Source: Escherichia phage vB_Eco_OMNI12
DNA: 64,000 bases
Sequence record: OL362041.1
Strand: one strand, 5' to 3'
Shown here: piece by piece, positions 547 to 10,046 of the stretch
Numbering within the stretch: position 1 is the stretch's first letter
Layout: each line of letters opens with the position of its first letter
Notes under the pieces: model-generated
What the model was told of the DNA's origin: nothing
The model's input: the letters and a program-made list of their open reading frames with translations, nothing else
The model's database searches: none
Program-made: the position numbers and the translations under genes

Positions 547-963
547 TTAAATGTAAATATTTTTGCCGTAATACTTATACCAGTGTGGCTTCATTAAAAT
601 TTTTTCATCGAGTCGTTGTTGACTCAACTTAATAGCTGATTTGCATGGATTATAATCATTTTTTCATTCTACTGGAATATCGCTGATGTCAGGAACTTCA
701 GTATCTTTTATACTGAACCCGCGTTTTAAGCATTCCGTTATAATGTCCGATTGACGCTTTCGCAAAAATTCTAACTTATCGTAAAAGAAAGTAACATGAC
801 CAGAACCTAAAATAAATTTAGAAGATATTTTAAAATCTTTAACGCGCTTACCGTTTGCCACATGCTTACGAACTATACCAAAAACACGCGGCAATTCACG
901 GTATTCTGCGATTAAATGTTGATCAGCAAGTTCAGATACTAAAGTCAAATTAATACGAGTCAT
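547..963 (-). pseudogene. denV: Endonuclease V (pyrimidine dimer DNA glycosylase) with in-frame TGA at codon 100; 138 codons total
   Basis: ORF track 99 aa [17 protein letters not shown]... matches T4 EndoV N-terminus; same frame continues after TGA (664-666) as KNDYNPCKSAIKLSQQRLDEKILMKPHWYKYYGKNIYI to TAA at 547-549, matching the EndoV C-terminus. Confidence 0.7.
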
Positions 964-1022
964 TTTATCCCTCCAAGTAACTGTGAATATACTATCACAA
1001 TTCTAGGAGAAAGTAAACAACT

Positions 1023-3835: not shown

Positions 3836-4429
3836 TTATTTCAGAGAATTAATGTATTCCTGAACATCGGCAGAGGTAGTTTCAACCCCAGAAATATTAC
3901 CGTTAAAGGTTTCAACTCGAGCAAGGGTATCTTCAATATCAACCTTAGTCAGTGCTGCAATTTCAACTACATCATCAGCAGTACTAATTCCAAGGGCATT
4001 TGCTGCACGAGTTTCACGGATATATTCCAATTTAACCGCAAGTTCTTGACGAGCATCATCTAACTCAACTACTTTCTTGGCGATTTCAATTCGCATTTCA
4101 GCATAACCGTCAGCCTTAGTAGTCAACTGCTCAGCTGTTCGACGATATAGTAAACCGAGTTTAGCATGCATTGTTACATCTTGGCCTTCGGAAAGAAGTT
4201 TACGAATTTCACGCTCTTTTGATTCGGCCTGTCGATTCTTTTCGATAACAAGTTCACGAATACGTTTTTCTTCGTTAATAGATTTAACAGAAGCAGTTTT
4301 TAGATCTTTAATTTTATCAAGTAGTTTTGCTGCTGCAGCAGTATACTGTTCTTCGACAGATAGATTTTTAGCCATAGCAGAACCAAGTTTAGTGCGAATA
4401 AACTCAACAATTTTCTTCAGTGTGTTCAT
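3836..4429 (-). CDS. Coiled-coil hypothetical protein
   Basis: 197 aa, heptad-rich charged sequence; RBS AAGGAAA upstream of ATG. Confidence 0.6.
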
Positions 4430-4489
4430 AGTATTTCCTTAGGTTAATTGAGATTTAAAATCCGTAGGAGTATAATACTCTATCGTCAA

Positions 4490-4530
4490 ATTATAGGCTC
4501 ATAATATCTCAATCATGAGCCTGCGTAAAC
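4490..4530 (-). promoter_or_regulatory. Early-type promoter candidate (-35 GTTTAC, -10 TATTAT/TATAAT) with internal inverted repeat
   Basis: Minus strand GTTTACGCAGGCTCATGATTGAGATATTATGAGCCTATAAT; inverted repeat AGGCTCAT/ATGAGCCT between the elements. Confidence 0.4.
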
Positions 4531-4794
4531 TTATTTCATATTATTGAAATATTCTTCTGCGATTTCGTCGTTATCATGGTAAACTTTAGAAGACAGTTTA
4601 ACATAACCTTCTGCTGTGAACATATTAATCACAACTTTTACAGTATACCACTGACCGTCTTCATTACCCATTACTGCGTAAGTTTCAAACATCGGATGAT
4701 CAGGACCGATAACTTTAATATCATTCACTGTACGACCGAAATCTTCTGAAACGCATTTCATAAAGAAGTTGAACAGTTCGCCGTAATTATCCAT
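4531..4794 (-). CDS. Hypothetical small protein (start moved to internal Met)
   Basis: ORF track 4531..4914; a promoter-like element lies inside the 5' extension and GGAG RBS precedes MDNYGELFNFF. Confidence 0.5.
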   Translation of the reverse strand: MDNYGELFNFFMKCVSEDFGRTVNDIKVIGPDHPMFETYAVMGNEDGQWYTVKVVINMFTAEGYVKLSSKVYHDNDEIAEEYFNNMK

Positions 4795-4837
4795 TTCATT
4801 CTCCAAGTTGTTTTCTGTATCAGTAGTTGATAGTTGT

Positions 4838-4880
4838 ATAGTACCATGGAAGAACAGAGATGTAAACAGTTTTGTGAAAA
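4838..4880 (-). promoter_or_regulatory. Early-type promoter candidate (-35 GTTTAC, 18-nt spacer, -10 TACTAT, upstream TTTCACAAAA)
   Basis: Minus strand TTTTTCACAAAACTGTTTACATCTCTGTTCTTCCATGGTACTATAC; same architecture as the repeats at 9.4-10.1 kb. Confidence 0.45.
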
Positions 4881-5023
4881 AATTTTTAGGGAATTCTAGG
4901 GCAGGGATGGGCAATTAAAGGATAGGATAATATATTATAAAGGGTATAAACTAAATGATGCCTAGAGAGGTCCAGAAAGGCCTAGATACCAAAAAGCCCT
5001 ATCATTTAGATAGGGATTTAAAA

Positions 5024-5587
5024 TTATTTACCTAGTTTACTTATTATAGCTTCTGCAGCAGCTTTTAGCTTAGATGCAGTGTTAATACGATTTTTAATTT
5101 CAGTATACGCATCGCCAAGAACATCAAGGCTATCAGAATAAACACTTACACTATTGCGTTCGCTATTTGAAATAGAACCTTTAGTTTTGCGGTCAAAATC
5201 GGTGTACACGTCTTGAAGATCGCGGGCTGCCTTCTTTGCATCATCCAATGCATCAAGAGCTTTATTCAAAGCATTAACGTATTTTTTAGTGTCGAACATA
5301 TTCTTAGAAATTTTAACAGGTGCGCGTTCAGGAGTAGCTAACACAGATTTAGGAACCTGAGCGCCAGATGCCAATTTCTTAGAAATTTTGAAAAATGCTT
5401 TATTGAATTTATTTTCTTGACTCATTGTAAAAGAACTATTATCGATGTTGTACATTTCAATAGCTTTAGCTTTCCACTTAAGAAAATCGCCGCGGTCTTT
5501 TGGGTCCAATTGGAAGAATACTTTAGTAAGATCTGCTTCAGATGGTAATTTTGCTGCTTCGGTTAAAAATTCGGCATAGGTTTTCAT
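5024..5587 (-). CDS. Internal-protein-like capsid-packaged protein (N-terminal CTS-like MKTYAEFLTE)
   Basis: 187 aa; N-terminus fits T4 internal-protein capsid targeting consensus; RBS AAGGA upstream. Confidence 0.6.
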   Translation of the reverse strand: MKTYAEFLTEAAKLPSEADLTKVFFQLDPKDRGDFLKWKAKAIEMYNIDNSSFTMSQENKFNKAFFKISKKLASGAQVPKSVLATPERAPVKISKNMFDTKKYVNALNKALDALDDAKKAARDLQDVYTDFDRKTKGSISNSERNSVSVYSDSLDVLGDAYTEIKNRINTASKLKAAAEAIISKLGK

Positions 5588-5675
5588 TTAAAATCCTTGA
5601 AATAATTTATCGGTTGGTTATTAATTATTTATTACTTTGTTACTATCCGTAACAGCGTTATCCGAGTGATTCAAA

Positions 5676-5704
5676 CTAAAAAGCCCCAACCTTTCGGTCG
5701 GGGC
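5676..5704 (-). terminator. Intrinsic terminator (GCCCCGACC-GAAA-GGUUGGGGC followed by UUUUU)
   Basis: Sequence aaaaagccccaacctttcggtcggggctaag; identical copy at 6235-6261. Confidence 0.7.
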
Positions 5705-5712
5705 TAAGAATG

Positions 5713-6186
5713 TCATTTGATTTGTTTAGCAGACCAAATGCGGTCTTTAATAATTTTTTGGATGTCTTCAACATACTCAAGAGAGTGAACATGTGGATTA
5801 TCTTTGAAACTATAAGCACGGGCTAACTTTTGGCCTTCGGTTTTGATTACTAAAAGCTCTTTAAGGATAGCTTCATATTTAGCGATAATTCCTTTAACGA
5901 TATTTTTTTCTTGTGCCGCTTTAGGATCTGCTTTAGGAGCAGGTTTACCCGAAGCCTTTGCAAAAGCAGCGCCAGTAGCAACTAAACTTTTCCAGGCCAT
6001 ACTAACTGCATTTCCCGTAAATCCTTCCGCTTTCATGTCGCGTGCAAACTGGAATCGCGATTCATCAGAAGCATCTTTATAGGAATATTTACCCGCGGCA
6101 ATGGCAGCTTTTGCAACAGCTTGAATTTCGGTGCTAGATGCTTCATTTAACACCGCTTCATTTAAAAATTGAGTATATGATTTCAT
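5713..6186 (-). CDS. Internal-protein-like capsid-packaged protein (N-terminal CTS-like MKSYTQFLNE)
   Basis: ORF track 5713..6363 runs through the terminator and tRNA-like region; true start taken at internal ATG with RBS AGGAAA. Confidence 0.6.
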   Translation of the reverse strand: MKSYTQFLNEAVLNEASSTEIQAVAKAAIAAGKYSYKDASDESRFQFARDMKAEGFTGNAVSMAWKSLVATGAAFAKASGKPAPKADPKAAQEKNIVKGIIAKYEAILKELLVIKTEGQKLARAYSFKDNPHVHSLEYVEDIQKIIKDRIWSAKQIK

Positions 6187-6234
6187 CTTATTTCCTGTTT
6201 TAATTTGTAGATTTAATATACTAATATTTATACC

Positions 6235-6261
6235 AAAAAGCCCCAACCTTTCGGTCGGGGC
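6235..6261 (-). terminator. Intrinsic terminator, second identical copy
   Basis: Identical hairpin plus U-run; ends the tRNA/stable-RNA transcription unit. Confidence 0.7.
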
Positions 6262-6265
6262 TAAG

Positions 6266-6578
6266 CCTTGCGGCAACCTTGTCGGGGTTCCACCTGCTAA
6301 GACAAGTGTTTGTACGAAACGCCGGGATTCGAACCCGGTTATTAAGTAGTTGACGCTACTCAATATTTTTAAAAGGCCATATCTCGACCATATCCGAACG
6401 TTCCGTCAAAAACGCTACTCGGCTTACGGCAAAGATATTTCCTCGAATCGATAATTCGGTGCGCCGTTTCTGCTGTGGTGTAAGAGGGCATCAACAAATC
6501 ATAAAGATTTATTAACGCAATTCCTTACCCAGGGAACATCAGTCCGACGACTTACCGGTAGCGACCCGGTTTCTTGTC
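6266..6578 (-). ncRNA. Candidate small stable RNA region (position of T4 species 1 / species 2 RNAs), includes tRNA-like element ~6314-6405
   Basis: Non-coding stretch between tRNA-Arg and terminator; T-arm-like CCGGGTTCGAATCCCGG with pairing acceptor-like ends CGGAACG / CGTTTCG. Confidence 0.4.
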
Positions 6579-6655
<77 letters not shown>

Positions 6656-6658
6656 TAA

Positions 6659-7324
6659 TTAAAATTTCATTTTTCGACCTTTAAACCATCCTTCTGGAAT
6701 TGGGTCAGTTTTCTTAATACGTTTAGAAACTTTTTCATCTAATGAATGAATCCACATCATACCAAATTGGGAATTCTTTTCACCTTGTTGGTGTTTATTT
6801 TTGGCGTGAGATTCTTTCATTTTATTAATAGTTTCAAGAGTATGGGTCTTACCCAAGAAAGATTTAATATTTAAAAATTTCTCTCTATACTTAGGATTAT
6901 CCCAAAGCTGTTTAAACCTTTCTGAACCCATTTTACGATATTTTTCTTTAAGGTCTGGGTCGTTCTCAAATCTGGTTTTAAAAGCAGCAGCCCCTTTTAA
7001 GGAAGCTTCTTTCTTTTTATCCAAATATTCTTTAGTGTTTAAATGGTCCCAACCACCTTCACCACCTAATTTCAAATTATAAACATCAGGGCGCTTTAAA
7101 AACTCTTCAGTCACAATATTCTTTTCTGACTCAAACATAGAGGTTTTATCGTCAAAGAACTCTAATATTTCTTTAGAGAAATTTTCTATACCATACTTGT
7201 CTTGGGCTCTTTTTAATAATTTACCAGAACCCATATATCCATCATCTAAATTTTCGGTAGAATGAGCGCCTATATAGATTTTATTATTAATTTTATTTGT
7301 TATTTTATAAGTGTAATGGAACAT
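6659..7324 (-). CDS. segB: GIY-YIG homing endonuclease (SegB-like) inside the tRNA cluster
   Basis: 221 aa; N-terminal YKITNKINNKIYIGAH...GYMGSG GIY-YIG motif; same position as T4 segB. Confidence 0.8.
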   Translation of the reverse strand: MFHYTYKITNKINNKIYIGAHSTENLDDGYMGSGKLLKRAQDKYGIENFSKEILEFFDDKTSMFESEKNIVTEEFLKRPDVYNLKLGGEGGWDHLNTKEYLDKKKEASLKGAAAFKTRFENDPDLKEKYRKMGSERFKQLWDNPKYREKFLNIKSFLGKTHTLETINKMKESHAKNKHQQGEKNSQFGMMWIHSLDEKVSKRIKKTDPIPEGWFKGRKMKF

Positions 7325-7365
7325 AAATATCTCCTATTTCTAAGAGTATTTATGTTCCCAAAATA

Positions 7366-7437
7366 TGGCCCTGGGTGGAATTGAACCACCATCTGGCGAT
7401 TATGAGTCGCTTGCTTGAACCTTCCAGCTACAGGGCC
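7366..7437 (-). tRNA. tRNA-Ile (anticodon CAU, presumably lysidine-modified)
   Basis: Acceptor GGCCCUG, anticodon loop CUCAUAA, T-loop GGUUCAAUUCC. Confidence 0.8.
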
Positions 7438-7443
7438 TTGATA

Positions 7444-7516
7444 TGCTGATTGACGGAATCGAACCGCCGACATCCTCATTACAAGTGAGGTGCTCTACCT
7501 ACTGAGCTAAATCAGC
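7444..7516 (-). tRNA. tRNA-Thr (anticodon UGU)
   Basis: Anticodon arm CCUCA-CUUGUAA-UGAGG, T-loop UUCGAUU. Confidence 0.85.
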
Positions 7517-7523
7517 GAAATTA

Positions 7524-7610
7524 CGGAGGCGATAGGATTTGAACCTATGAGTCACCGGAGCGACTGCCGGTTTTCAAGACCGGTGCATTAAACCACTCTG
7601 CCACGCCTCC
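7524..7610 (-). tRNA. tRNA-Ser (anticodon UGA), long variable arm
   Basis: 87 nt; acceptor GGAGGCG, anticodon loop CUUGAAA. Confidence 0.85.
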
Positions 7611-7612
7611 AG

Positions 7613-7686
7613 TCTCCGCGGCAGGATTTGAACCTGCGACATTCTGCTCCCAAAGCAGACGCTCTACCAAACTGAGCTACACGGAG
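7613..7686 (-). tRNA. tRNA-Pro (anticodon UGG)
   Basis: Anticodon arm UCUGC-UUUGGGA-GCAGA, T-loop GGUUCAAAUCC. Confidence 0.85.
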
Positions 7687-7698
7687 TAAATTAAATTT

Positions 7699-7770
<72 letters not shown>

Positions 7771-7776
7771 AAACTT

Positions 7777-7863
7777 TGGTACGAGAAGTGGGACTCGAAC
7801 CCACAAGGAAATCATTCCGCAGCATTTTAAGTGCTGTGCCTTTACCAATTTGACCATTCTCGC
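7777..7863 (-). tRNA. tRNA-Leu (anticodon UAA), CCA encoded
   Basis: 87 nt, long variable arm; anticodon arm CAGCA-CUUAAAA-UGCUG. Confidence 0.85.
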
Positions 7864-7864
7864 G

Positions 7865-7937
7865 CTGGGAATAAAGGACTCGAACCTTTGCATCTAGCAG
7901 TCAAAGTGCTATGCCTTACCAACTTGGCTAATTCCCA
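7865..7937 (-). tRNA. tRNA-Gln (anticodon UUG)
   Basis: Acceptor UGGGAAU, anticodon loop CUUUGAC; directly abuts tRNA-Leu. Confidence 0.85.
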
Positions 7938-8006
7938 ATTATTAACAAAGGCTCTCAGGAAAGAACCCTTGATGATAGAGGGTATTAATCAGTGCGATAT
8001 GAGTTA

Positions 8007-8031
8007 ATAATAACACATAATTCTTAAAGCA
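8007..8031 (-). promoter_or_regulatory. Candidate middle promoter (MotA-box-like TGCTTTA, 12 nt, -10 TATTAT) upstream of the tRNA cluster
   Basis: Minus strand ATTTGCTTTAAGAATTATGTGTTATTAT ~70 nt upstream of tRNA-Gln. Confidence 0.3.
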
Positions 8032-8539
8032 AATCAATCATTTTAACGGTTGGCAAAACAATTTCTTTTTCAATATAAGCAAATTCGACACGTTCAACTA
8101 CACGCAAGAAATCGTAATCATAGTATTCAGAAGCATAGCCAAGAATATCAATAAGTCCTTGAGATATCTCATCGCCTTTCACAAAGAACAGGTCGAATAC
8201 GCGGGCTTCGTCTTCTTCAGATTTATCACCAAGGTCTACTTCGATACCAAAGACCTTTTTAATAAATTCCGGTTGGAGTTGGTCTGAGAACAGTCCTTCA
8301 ACCAGATATTCGTAGATAATAAGCGAGCAACGACCGAATGGTGTATTACCGCAATAACGTTCGGCTTTGGTGCTAGAATGACGGCTCTTAAATTTCTTCA
8401 AGAGATATTTAAACTGTTGGAGCTCATGCTCTTCCACTTCAAACAATGTTTTGGTTTTATAGTTGTCACCATCACTTTCATAGGTAGTGACATCAATTAC
8501 GTAGCCCTTAGGAATTGTACTGCCTAAACGAATATTCAT
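8024..8539 (-). CDS. Hypothetical protein
   Basis: 171 aa ORF, first of a co-oriented translationally coupled set. Confidence 0.6.
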   Translation of the reverse strand: MNIRLGSTIPKGYVIDVTTYESDGDNYKTKTLFEVEEHELQQFKYLLKKFKSRHSSTKAERYCGNTPFGRCSLIIYEYLVEGLFSDQLQPEFIKKVFGIEVDLGDKSEEDEARVFDLFFVKGDEISQGLIDILGYASEYYDYDFLRVVERVEFAYIEKEIVLPTVKMIDLL

Positions 8540-9478: not shown

Positions 9479-9712
9479 TTATTTTTTACGAAAAATTGAT
9501 TTATTTTCTGCTGCCCATTTTTCAATAACTGCAGCAGGACCAGTAACAACAATTTTATCACCGTAATCTTCTGCGGCGAGTTGACCGAAATTATCTAATG
9601 CATCACGAAGAACTCCATGAGGCATTTCACCCATTTTATCTTTCTTGCCAGTGTAAATAAACTCAACTTTTACATCAGCAGTTTCAGCAATAAATTCTTG
9701 GTAAGTTTTCAT
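9479..9712 (-). CDS. Internal-protein-like small protein (N-terminal CTS MKTYQEFIAE)
   Basis: ORF track 9479..9724 (MEIKMKTYQEFIAE); start placed at second ATG with GGAAAT RBS. Confidence 0.6.
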   Translation of the reverse strand: MKTYQEFIAETADVKVEFIYTGKKDKMGEMPHGVLRDALDNFGQLAAEDYGDKIVVTGPAAVIEKWAAENKSIFRKK

Positions 9713-9724
9713 TTTGATTTCCAT

Positions 9725-9788: not shown

Positions 9789-10046
9789 TTATTTTAAATC
9801 TTCTAATCGTTTCTTCATCTTAGAACCATTTTTAGCAATTTCTCCTGCATCGGAGCATAATGCTAAAAGTGCTTTAACTTTAGTTTGGTCTCCTTTAAAA
9901 GATGAAGGATCGACCGCAGCAGCAAGTTCTTTAATACGAGAGAAAAGACGCTCAGCTTCAGCTAAAGCCATTCCAAGCTTTACTTCCATACCGTGGGAAG
10001 ATTCAGTGATAGTAGTTTTTGTAGCAAACTCTTTGAAAGTTTTCAT
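9789..10046 (-). CDS. Internal-protein-like small protein (N-terminal CTS-like MKTFKEFATK)
   Basis: 85 aa; RBS AGGAAA upstream; 3' end codons DLK-stop lie inside the repeated element. Confidence 0.55.
   Translation of the reverse strand: MKTFKEFATKTTITESSHGMEVKLGMALAEAERLFSRIKELAAAVDPSSFKGDQTKVKALLALCSDAGEIAKNGSKMKKRLEDLK

Follow-up and report, generated by a model that had tools for sequence, protein, structure and literature searches.

Two candidate internal-protein genes in terminator-bounded modules between e.8 and rnaC of Escherichia phage vB_Eco_OMNI12

Two adjacent open reading frames (ORFs), ORF A and ORF B, lie between e.8 and rnaC in the stretch of 64,000 nucleotides (nt) of Escherichia phage vB_Eco_OMNI12 analysed here (OL362041.1; the whole stretch is called the window below). 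The reading proposed for them, to which a probability of about 65% is given, is that they encode accessory internal proteins (IPs) of unnamed families, packaged into the head and injected, which are likely to act against host defence and which occupy a third ip locus as modules bounded by terminators. The two genes are new, unnamed members of a class known since the 1990s, and their modularity is a variant of the known shuffling of T4-type genomes. Both are accessory genes of a non-essential type, varying between close relatives. The window belongs to a Tequatrovirus; over 4400-7400 it shares 99.4% identity with Yersinia phage fPS-90 (also Tequatrovirus), and this region matches 788 phage records. 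The features of the locus, all on the minus strand, are the following (aa, amino acids; the arrow marks predicted cleavage):

4531..4794, minus strand: e.8 homologue (96% DNA identity to T4 e.8; phrog_2678), the downstream anchor.
4991..5015, minus strand: predicted terminator T3, CCCTATC-TAAAT-GATAGGG followed by CU5 (7-bp stem; -10.4 kcal/mol), 3' end of the ORF A module.
5024..5587, minus strand: ORF A, 187 aa, starting MKTYAEFLTEAAKL; candidate internal protein (phrog_2280).
5558..5587, minus strand: codons 1-10 of ORF A, putative capsid-targeting sequence (CTS) and predicted gp21 cleavage site, MKTYAEFLTE↓A.
5626..5633, minus strand: AATAAATA, candidate weak late promoter of ORF A (7/8 match to the late-promoter consensus).
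5677..5708, minus strand: predicted terminator T2, an exact 31-nt copy of T1 (5678-5708), closing the ORF B module at its 3' end and joining it to the ORF A module.
5713..6186, minus strand: ORF B, 157 aa, starting MKSYTQFLNEAVLNEA; candidate internal protein (phrog_2280).
6157..6186, minus strand: codons 1-10 of ORF B, putative CTS and predicted gp21 cleavage site, MKSYTQFLNE↓A.
6225..6232, minus strand: late promoter with the T4-type consensus TATAAATA, directly adjoining the T1 U-run, with 38 nt from its end to the ATG of ORF B.
6234..6265, minus strand: predicted terminator T1 of the tRNA operon, CTTAGCCCCGACC-GAAA-GGTTGGGGC followed by U5, with the other copy of the 31-nt repeat (6235-6265).
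6313..6451, minus strand: homologue of rnaC (species 1 RNA), 99.3% identical over 139 nt to T4 rnaC of NC_000866.

Read in the direction of transcription, the locus is reached from the tRNA cluster with segB through rnaD (6458..6574) and rnaC, which is the final gene of the tRNA operon and anchors the locus upstream; after it come T1, the late promoter, ORF B, T2, ORF A, T3 and e.8, followed downstream by e.6 and other genes on to nudE, e and denV. An Rfam scan across 4800-8100 returned tRNAs only, rnaC and rnaD having no Rfam family. An earlier reading of the same DNA from its letters alone (the initial annotation) had placed both ORFs at these coordinates and had rightly regarded a 216-aa call for ORF B as over-extended, as its TTG at 6363 runs through T1 into rnaC and, unlike this call, every homologue begins at MKSY or MKTY. 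Each ORF stands behind a Shine-Dalgarno sequence (AAGGA at 5594-5598 for ORF A, AGGAAA at 6191-6196 for ORF B).

The first evidence for the proposed reading is the leader. As had also been noticed in the initial annotation, both proteins have capsid-targeting-like N-termini. Each also carries a predicted protease site: [LI]xE↓A falls at residues 8-11, as LTE↓A (ORF A) and LNE↓A (ORF B), a sequence match that coincides in position with the IAE↓A of IPII and IPIII. A second LNE↓A is found at residues 13-16 of ORF B. For IpIII, residues -10 to -1 are annotated as removed from the mature protein (GenBank X04567). Only four ORFs of the window have CTS-like starts, three of them fitting MK[ST][YF]x[EQ]F[ILVA]xE, and all four sit at two loci, the ipI locus and e.8-rnaC. 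In the B family, x-F-x-x-F-L-x-E↓[AG] is kept in members down to 35-42% identity and in more distant ones from other T4-like genera; this conservation in divergent relatives argues that the leader is functional and its motif under selection. The composition of both proteins (isoelectric point 9.4-9.5, 13-14% Lys) is similar to that of IPII and IPIII.

Past the leader the two proteins stand apart from the known families. Alignment to T4 IPII and IPIII, the check suggested in the initial annotation, gave similarity over the first ~11-12 residues: ORF A aligns with IPII at residues 1-11/12 only (8/11 identical) and with IPIII likewise in the leader only, and ORF B produced no significant alignment with either T4 protein. 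Neither A nor B was accepted as a homologue of IPI, IPII or IPIII, since the leader alone aligns. In fact, none of the named internal proteins (IPI-III and IpIV-VI of phage PST) matches A or B beyond the first ~12 residues, and the 13-27% global identity to PST IpIII-VI is noise. Homology between A and B is doubtful, BLASTP aligning residues 1-11 (7/11) and profile-profile comparison with hhalign the first 12 residues, yet the two share phrog_2280 (annotated "unknown function" in PHROGs) and the architecture of their models. No Pfam family scored above threshold for either protein. Homologues of ORF A are found in 164 phage records (85-100% identity) and those of ORF B in 511, from Tequatrovirus, from Mosigvirus (~71-73%) and, partially, from Klebsiella Jiaodavirus; in every listed annotation, for A as for B, the product is a "hypothetical protein" or "Phage protein". 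About a dozen members of the B family turned up among 5.8 billion clustered proteins and 1.84 billion representatives. A profile built from the B alignment retrieved 14 matches among the 1.84 billion representative proteins, and the eight sequences inspected, the most divergent full-length ones included, all look like T4-type relatives or fragments of these and all retain the leader motif given above. AlphaFold predicts a common layout for A and B, namely a leader helix, a small three-helix domain, a linker rich in Pro, Lys and Ala, and a long C-terminal helical hairpin, with a predicted local distance difference test (pLDDT) score of 74 for B (85-92 in the N-domain) and 64 for A. With the B model, Foldseek found self-hits only in PDB and BFVD, the A model being too weak to search.

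Virion proteomics, another check named in the initial annotation, is available for a close relative. In purified virions of phage fD1 (phiD1) analysed by liquid chromatography and tandem mass spectrometry, the 157-aa protein g140 was scored as particle-associated and as having no T4 homologue (PMC8309999), and this protein is 98.1% identical to ORF B; a near-identical homologue has thus been found in a virion proteome, in a screen of low specificity. Two Ip homologues of fD1, g129 (IpIV) and g146, were also scored as particle-associated, and the small neighbours g133-135, g138 and g139 (e.8) were not (PMC8309999). The proteome is supportive of the packaging of ORF B, not decisive. Packaging is considered very probable for ORF B and probable for ORF A.

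The second evidence is the arrangement of terminators. The 31-mer CTTAGCCCCGACCGAAAGGTTGGGGCTTTTT (minus strand) occurs exactly twice in the window, at 5678-5708 and 6235-6265; no further copy with up to 3 mismatches is present in the 64 kb, and 0 are expected from 100 shuffles. The repeated identical terminator claimed in the initial annotation stands as an exact 31-nt repeat, but the coordinates given there (5676-5704 and 6235-6261) were slightly off and too short, and T3, which differs from T1 and T2, was not mentioned there. In T1 and T2 alike, a 10-bp stem, seven of whose pairs are G-C, closes a GAAA loop and is followed by U5 (-20.3 kcal/mol). T4 and PST have a single copy of the T1 equivalent in the same place, and T2 variants of other phages retain pairing (for example, by a GA to AG swap opposite UU). 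Judged by its sequence, each of T1, T2 and T3 is an intrinsic terminator, having a G+C-rich hairpin and a U-run on the transcribed strand. The depositors of fPS-90 annotated all three, together with the late promoter as a predicted one, and TATAAATA is conserved across the B-containing Tequatrovirus loci. The candidate promoter AATAAATA ends 38 nt before the ORF A ATG, a spacing equal to that of ORF B; its heptamer ATAAATA is kept in all A-containing loci, with variable sequence upstream of it. No sigma-70-like site was found on the minus strand from T1 to ORF B or from T2 to ORF A. Expression of ORF A would come either from AATAAATA or by read-through of T2 (of T1 in the A-only phages).

Comparative synteny of the interval, also suggested in the initial annotation, revealed four states among 17 loci of related phages with flanks 94-100% identical. 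The empty site (T4, PST) has one terminator after rnaC, then GGTATCTA[A/G]G..., then e.8. Phages with B only (phiD1, fPS-2, e11/2, PP01) read T-[G/A]GTATAAATA...B...CATTC-T'-GGTATCTAGG, and those with A only (T4_ev151, Killian, CT01) read T-AGTTTGAATC...A...T3-GGTATCTAGG. B followed by A is found in the window, fPS-90, DalCa, OES_C-2, ECML-134, CrRp10, F13076 and Pu-Krd-SF3. In all 17 loci the junctions fall directly after GGGGCTTTTT, that is, at the same nucleotide past the U-run, and because every breakpoint has this position the units can be described as terminator-delimited modules. The window differs from T4_ev151 by exactly 557 nt, which is the spacing from T1 to T2; the extra unit of the B-only phages, compared with T4, is flanked by 36-nt repeats; and for the A module, T3 being unlike T1 and T2, the shared bounding sequence is just 9 nt long (GGGCTTTTT). 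In the window, GGTATCTAGG lies 3' of T3, as it does behind the single terminator of T4 and PST. The view of ORF B as a cassette between two terminator copies is thereby borne out, with presence and absence breaking at those terminators. The same architecture is found in the Mosigvirus ChristianSchoenbein (Bas46), where ORF A has 96.8% protein identity and the adjoining B-like gene 71%, a difference that indicates exchange of the A module between genera. In Bas46 (positions 961-2111), the T3 hairpin has the same stem with its loop inverted (TAAAT to ATTTA). Junction-specific megablast put the B-A junction in ~124 records and the B-e.8 junction in ~277; these counts are approximate, as pieces less than ~590 nt apart get joined, and only these two are usable. 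Of 231 apparent T4-like matches, about one third in the sampled rows were true single-piece empty sites. The T4-like empty site is a minority state and, with ORF B in 511 records, the arrangement of the window is not unusual. With good confidence, though not certainty, the modules are exchanged by recombination at the terminators, which may themselves be the substrate.

The proposed mechanism would run as follows. Late in infection, ORF B would be transcribed from the TATAAATA that abuts T1, and ORF A from the near-consensus AATAAATA or via read-through. The N-terminal ~10 residues (MK[ST]YxxFLxE) would steer both proteins into the scaffolding core of the prohead, where the prohead protease gp21 would cut after Glu10 (L-x-E↓A), and the basic, lysine-rich mature proteins would stay with the DNA inside the head. 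In the following infection they would be injected along with it and disarm one of the defences of the host, for which a type IV restriction enzyme directed at modified phage DNA is the most plausible candidate. We infer the packaging and processing of ORF A, the injection, the target, the ORF A promoter and the part of the terminators as recombination substrate; the sequence features, the distribution of the families, the four states and the breakpoint positions were observed directly, and the virion detection of a B homologue and the anti-restriction role of other IPs come from the literature. The modules, [late promoter-B-T] and [A-T3], would have been inserted exactly after a terminator U-run, and recombination between terminator copies would add, remove or exchange them in the manner of PeSL elements.

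The assignment of a function is made by analogy. Three different GmrSD enzymes are inhibited, one each, by Ip1, Ip2 and Ip3, which have only the leader in common (Silas et al., 2025, PMC12373910), and the leader-bearing protein Bas37_0260 inhibits McrBC (HIDEN-SEQ preprint, 10.1101/2025.11.20.689424); as a review of the T4 head puts it, the IPs are diverse defence proteins with the CTS alone in common (PMC3012670). Because all four CTS proteins of known function are anti-restriction proteins, A and B are likely to be defence inhibitors. An anti-defence role for A or B is thus slightly favoured, by comparison with these four, and a type IV restriction enzyme as its target is suggested only tentatively. 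Neither protein shows homology to IPI, IPII or IPIII beyond the leader, and the B model has no structural match.

Several observations weigh against this reading and lower the confidence placed in it. In fD1, between 113 and 137 of the 277 proteins were scored as particle-associated, DenV, lysozyme and NudE among them (PMC8309999), hence the low specificity of that screen. For ORF A no virion proteomics was found, the fPS-90 paper containing none, the DeePVP/HP3 paper being computational only and matches by locus tag all proving false. ORF A has no canonical promoter and stands behind a strong terminator. Neither A nor B resembles a known inhibitor in sequence, and the B model is likewise without a fold match. 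When Ip4-10 were assayed against 15 GmrSD groups, no reproducible new pairs were obtained (PMC12373910); a CTS is therefore no guarantee of a GmrSD target, and the target of A and B may lie elsewhere. Finally, breakpoints at terminators are also expected if selection kept only those recombinants that preserve transcription units.

The alternative that survives best, although still an unlikely one, is that A and B are packaged but serve the organisation of the head and its DNA (charge neutralisation, or an aid to packaging or ejection) and not counter-defence. Their basic, lysine-rich nature, the long helices and Pro/Lys/Ala linker of the models and the lack of similarity to known inhibitors agree with it, as does the solid-state nuclear magnetic resonance finding that IP lysines touch DNA phosphates (PMC3012670). 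On the other hand, the presence or absence of the genes in near-identical phages, T4 among them, shows that the head can function without them; polymorphism of this sort is characteristic of genes in an arms race, and the four characterised CTS proteins counter restriction.

Close behind it in probability, and also unlikely, is the view that the duplicated terminator is a regulatory insulator kept by selection and has no role in mobility, the indels having arisen from unrelated illegitimate events. Terminators after short accessory genes are indeed common in T4-like phages, and a terminator scan counted 12 terminator-like sites in 12 kb of this DNA against 6.4 expected; the mere 9 nt shared at the bounds of the A module fit this view too. 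It does not account easily for junctions at one and the same nucleotide in 17 loci, for the exact 557-nt difference from T4_ev151 or for the 36-nt repeats around the B-only unit; moreover, short homologies are enough for efficient recombination in T4-type phages, and PeSL motifs act alike (PMC2839356).

It is somewhat less probable still that the CTS-like N-termini are relics of recombination between the starts of ip genes, A and B themselves being ordinary accessory proteins of the cytoplasm with no specific packaging. The likeness to the IPs is confined to ~11 residues, the starts of A and B share a 42-nt stretch (74% identity) that could be a recombination site, all database records call the proteins hypothetical, and the fD1 proteome that contained the B homologue also contained many non-structural proteins. 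Against it stand the retention of the motif with its L-x-E↓[AG] site in B relatives at 35-42% identity and beyond, in other genera, which argues for selection on the motif, the basic, Lys-rich composition shared with IPII and IPIII and, in ORF B, a late promoter. Mullaney and Black reportedly showed in 1996 that a CTS of ten residues is enough for a foreign protein to be packaged. By means of the CTS, GFP and a nuclease are encapsidated (PMC3012670).

The weakest alternative, raised by the initial annotation, already refuted as to relocation and otherwise very improbable, is that A and B are ipII and ipIII relocated from the denV-e interval or replacements of them: T4 has both genes and an empty e.8-rnaC site, and the window has adjacent denV and e and no homologue of either gene, but homology stops at the CTS, several phages have IPIII alongside A and/or B, and the loss can be explained locally. 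The T4 order denV-ipII-ipIII-e had been correctly given, and the ~60 bp between denV and e correctly seen (a gap of 59 nt, 964..1022). IPIII is found in 261 records, and it is accompanied by A and/or B in Shfl2, vB_Eco_F25, G3F10, SCS4, VIPECOOM03, PaulHMueller and RPN187, which implies that the two loci vary independently; e.8-rnaC is an independent, third ip locus. In T4, an early promoter with an inverted repeat (GTTTAC...gaattgtga...), PeSL-like and similar in the three cases, stands before ipIII, before ipII and before denV (1357-1416, 1720-1834 and 2417-2503 of the T4 record used for comparison), and the e-denV spacer of the window (964..1022, minus strand) has one copy of it. A single copy in the window against several in T4 would explain the absence of ipII and ipIII by local recombination between repeats.

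Among known systems, the closest are the internal proteins themselves. A and B are like IPII and IPIII in the 10-residue CTS ending in [LI]xE↓A, in their size (100-190 aa), pI (~9.5) and Lys content (13-15%), and in belonging to non-essential genes of polymorphic distribution; they are unlike them in having no similarity past residue ~12, in their locus, and in that their packaging and function are so far predicted. The promoters differ as well, canonical late for ORF B and of early type for T4 ipII and ipIII. IpIV-VI of PST and the ip4-10 genes, reportedly named by Repoila et al. in 1994, are likewise CTS-bearing accessory genes of T-even phages. However, A and B share with the PST proteins no identity above noise, and PST is empty at e.8-rnaC. 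The N-terminal sequences of A and B are absent from the supplements of the ip4-10 study (Silas et al.), and these supplements and the PST annotation argue against any of ip4-10 being A or B. Ip1-3 and Bas37_0260, as leader-bearing proteins of T-even phages that share the leader alone, may serve as a functional precedent, although no sequence relation of A and B to T4 Ip1-3 was found. Bas37_0260 is encoded at the ipI locus, and both papers concern the two known Ip loci; Silas et al. (2025) speak of "two Ip loci" (PMC12373910), and e.8-rnaC is not among them.

The mode of exchange also has precedents. In PeSL elements, recombination between repeated promoter/stem-loop motifs that flank single ORFs shuffles modules (PMC2839356; PMC4122927). 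As in PeSL cassettes (Arbiol 2010; Comeau 2014), terminator stem-loop motifs flank single accessory ORFs at e.8-rnaC, motif and ORF are gained or lost together with precision, the cassette carries its own expression signals, and the indel breakpoints fall at the motif, here at the end of a terminator. Unlike them, the conserved unit here is an intrinsic terminator with no promoter hexamers in the repeat, and in the B module it is fused to the late TATAAATA and not to a strong sigma-70-like early promoter as in PeSL motifs. Another parallel is that of the lambdoid morons (Hendrix et al. 2000), which are single accessory genes with their own promoter and terminator between resident genes; their insertion is not tied to conserved flanks, whereas here repeated terminators flank the modules and the orientation matches that of the neighbours.

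The four states with identical breakpoints provide a clean case in which to judge whether terminators act as recombination linkers, and the phages with neither gene, A, B or both form natural isogenic-like sets for the comparison of host range. A and B are two concrete anti-defence candidates at a locus beyond the recognised Ip loci, at a time when inhibitors of several active GmrSD groups have yet to be found, and many of the carriers (~500 phages for ORF B, ~160 for ORF A) are candidates for phage therapy. A more far-reaching and doubtful suggestion is that the e.8-rnaC interval is an integron-like site for ip cassettes in Tevenvirinae, with the terminator fused to a late promoter as recombination linker, and that A and B inhibit defences beyond the reach of Ip1-3 and Bas37_0260. 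If so, co-infecting phages could swap ready-to-express genes for injected proteins and cover, for example, orphan GmrSD groups or systems other than type IV.

The other pair of CTS genes of the window, at the ipI locus (minus strand), consists of IpV (9789..10046, 100%) and IpVI (9479..9712, 95%), the names being those of PST (KF208315); the start of an 81-aa call for the latter (9479..9724) is probably four codons too early. On the other hand, the window has no counterpart of the 157-aa CTS gene carried between vs.8 and denV by fPS-90 (g125c, 670-1145 of the record used), fD1 (g129, a protein detected in virions and bearing the label "Head protein") and PST (ipIV). This missing IpIV gene begins MKTYQEFITE↓AA and corresponds to a ~477-bp indel at window positions ~546-548. 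The adjoining denV (547..963, minus strand) has an in-frame TGA at codon 100 (664-666), where fPS-90 has TGG (Trp), with the last 38 codons in frame; either a nonsense mutation has arisen recently, which would shorten endonuclease V to 99 aa, or the TGA is an error of sequencing. Downstream of the locus, a 127-aa call with a TTG start (4531..4914, minus strand) over-extends e.8 (87 aa) across an early-promoter region annotated in fPS-90. Within the tRNA cluster, ARAGORN calls a tRNA-Met (anticodon CAT) at 7366..7437 (minus strand), a position annotated as tRNA-Ile in T4, and the call probably reflects the unmodified anticodon only. Finally, a 171-aa ORF between the first tRNA (Gln) and a trna.2-like gene (8024..8539, minus strand), which has no T4 counterpart there and is g142 in fD1, marks another variable slot beside the tRNA cluster.

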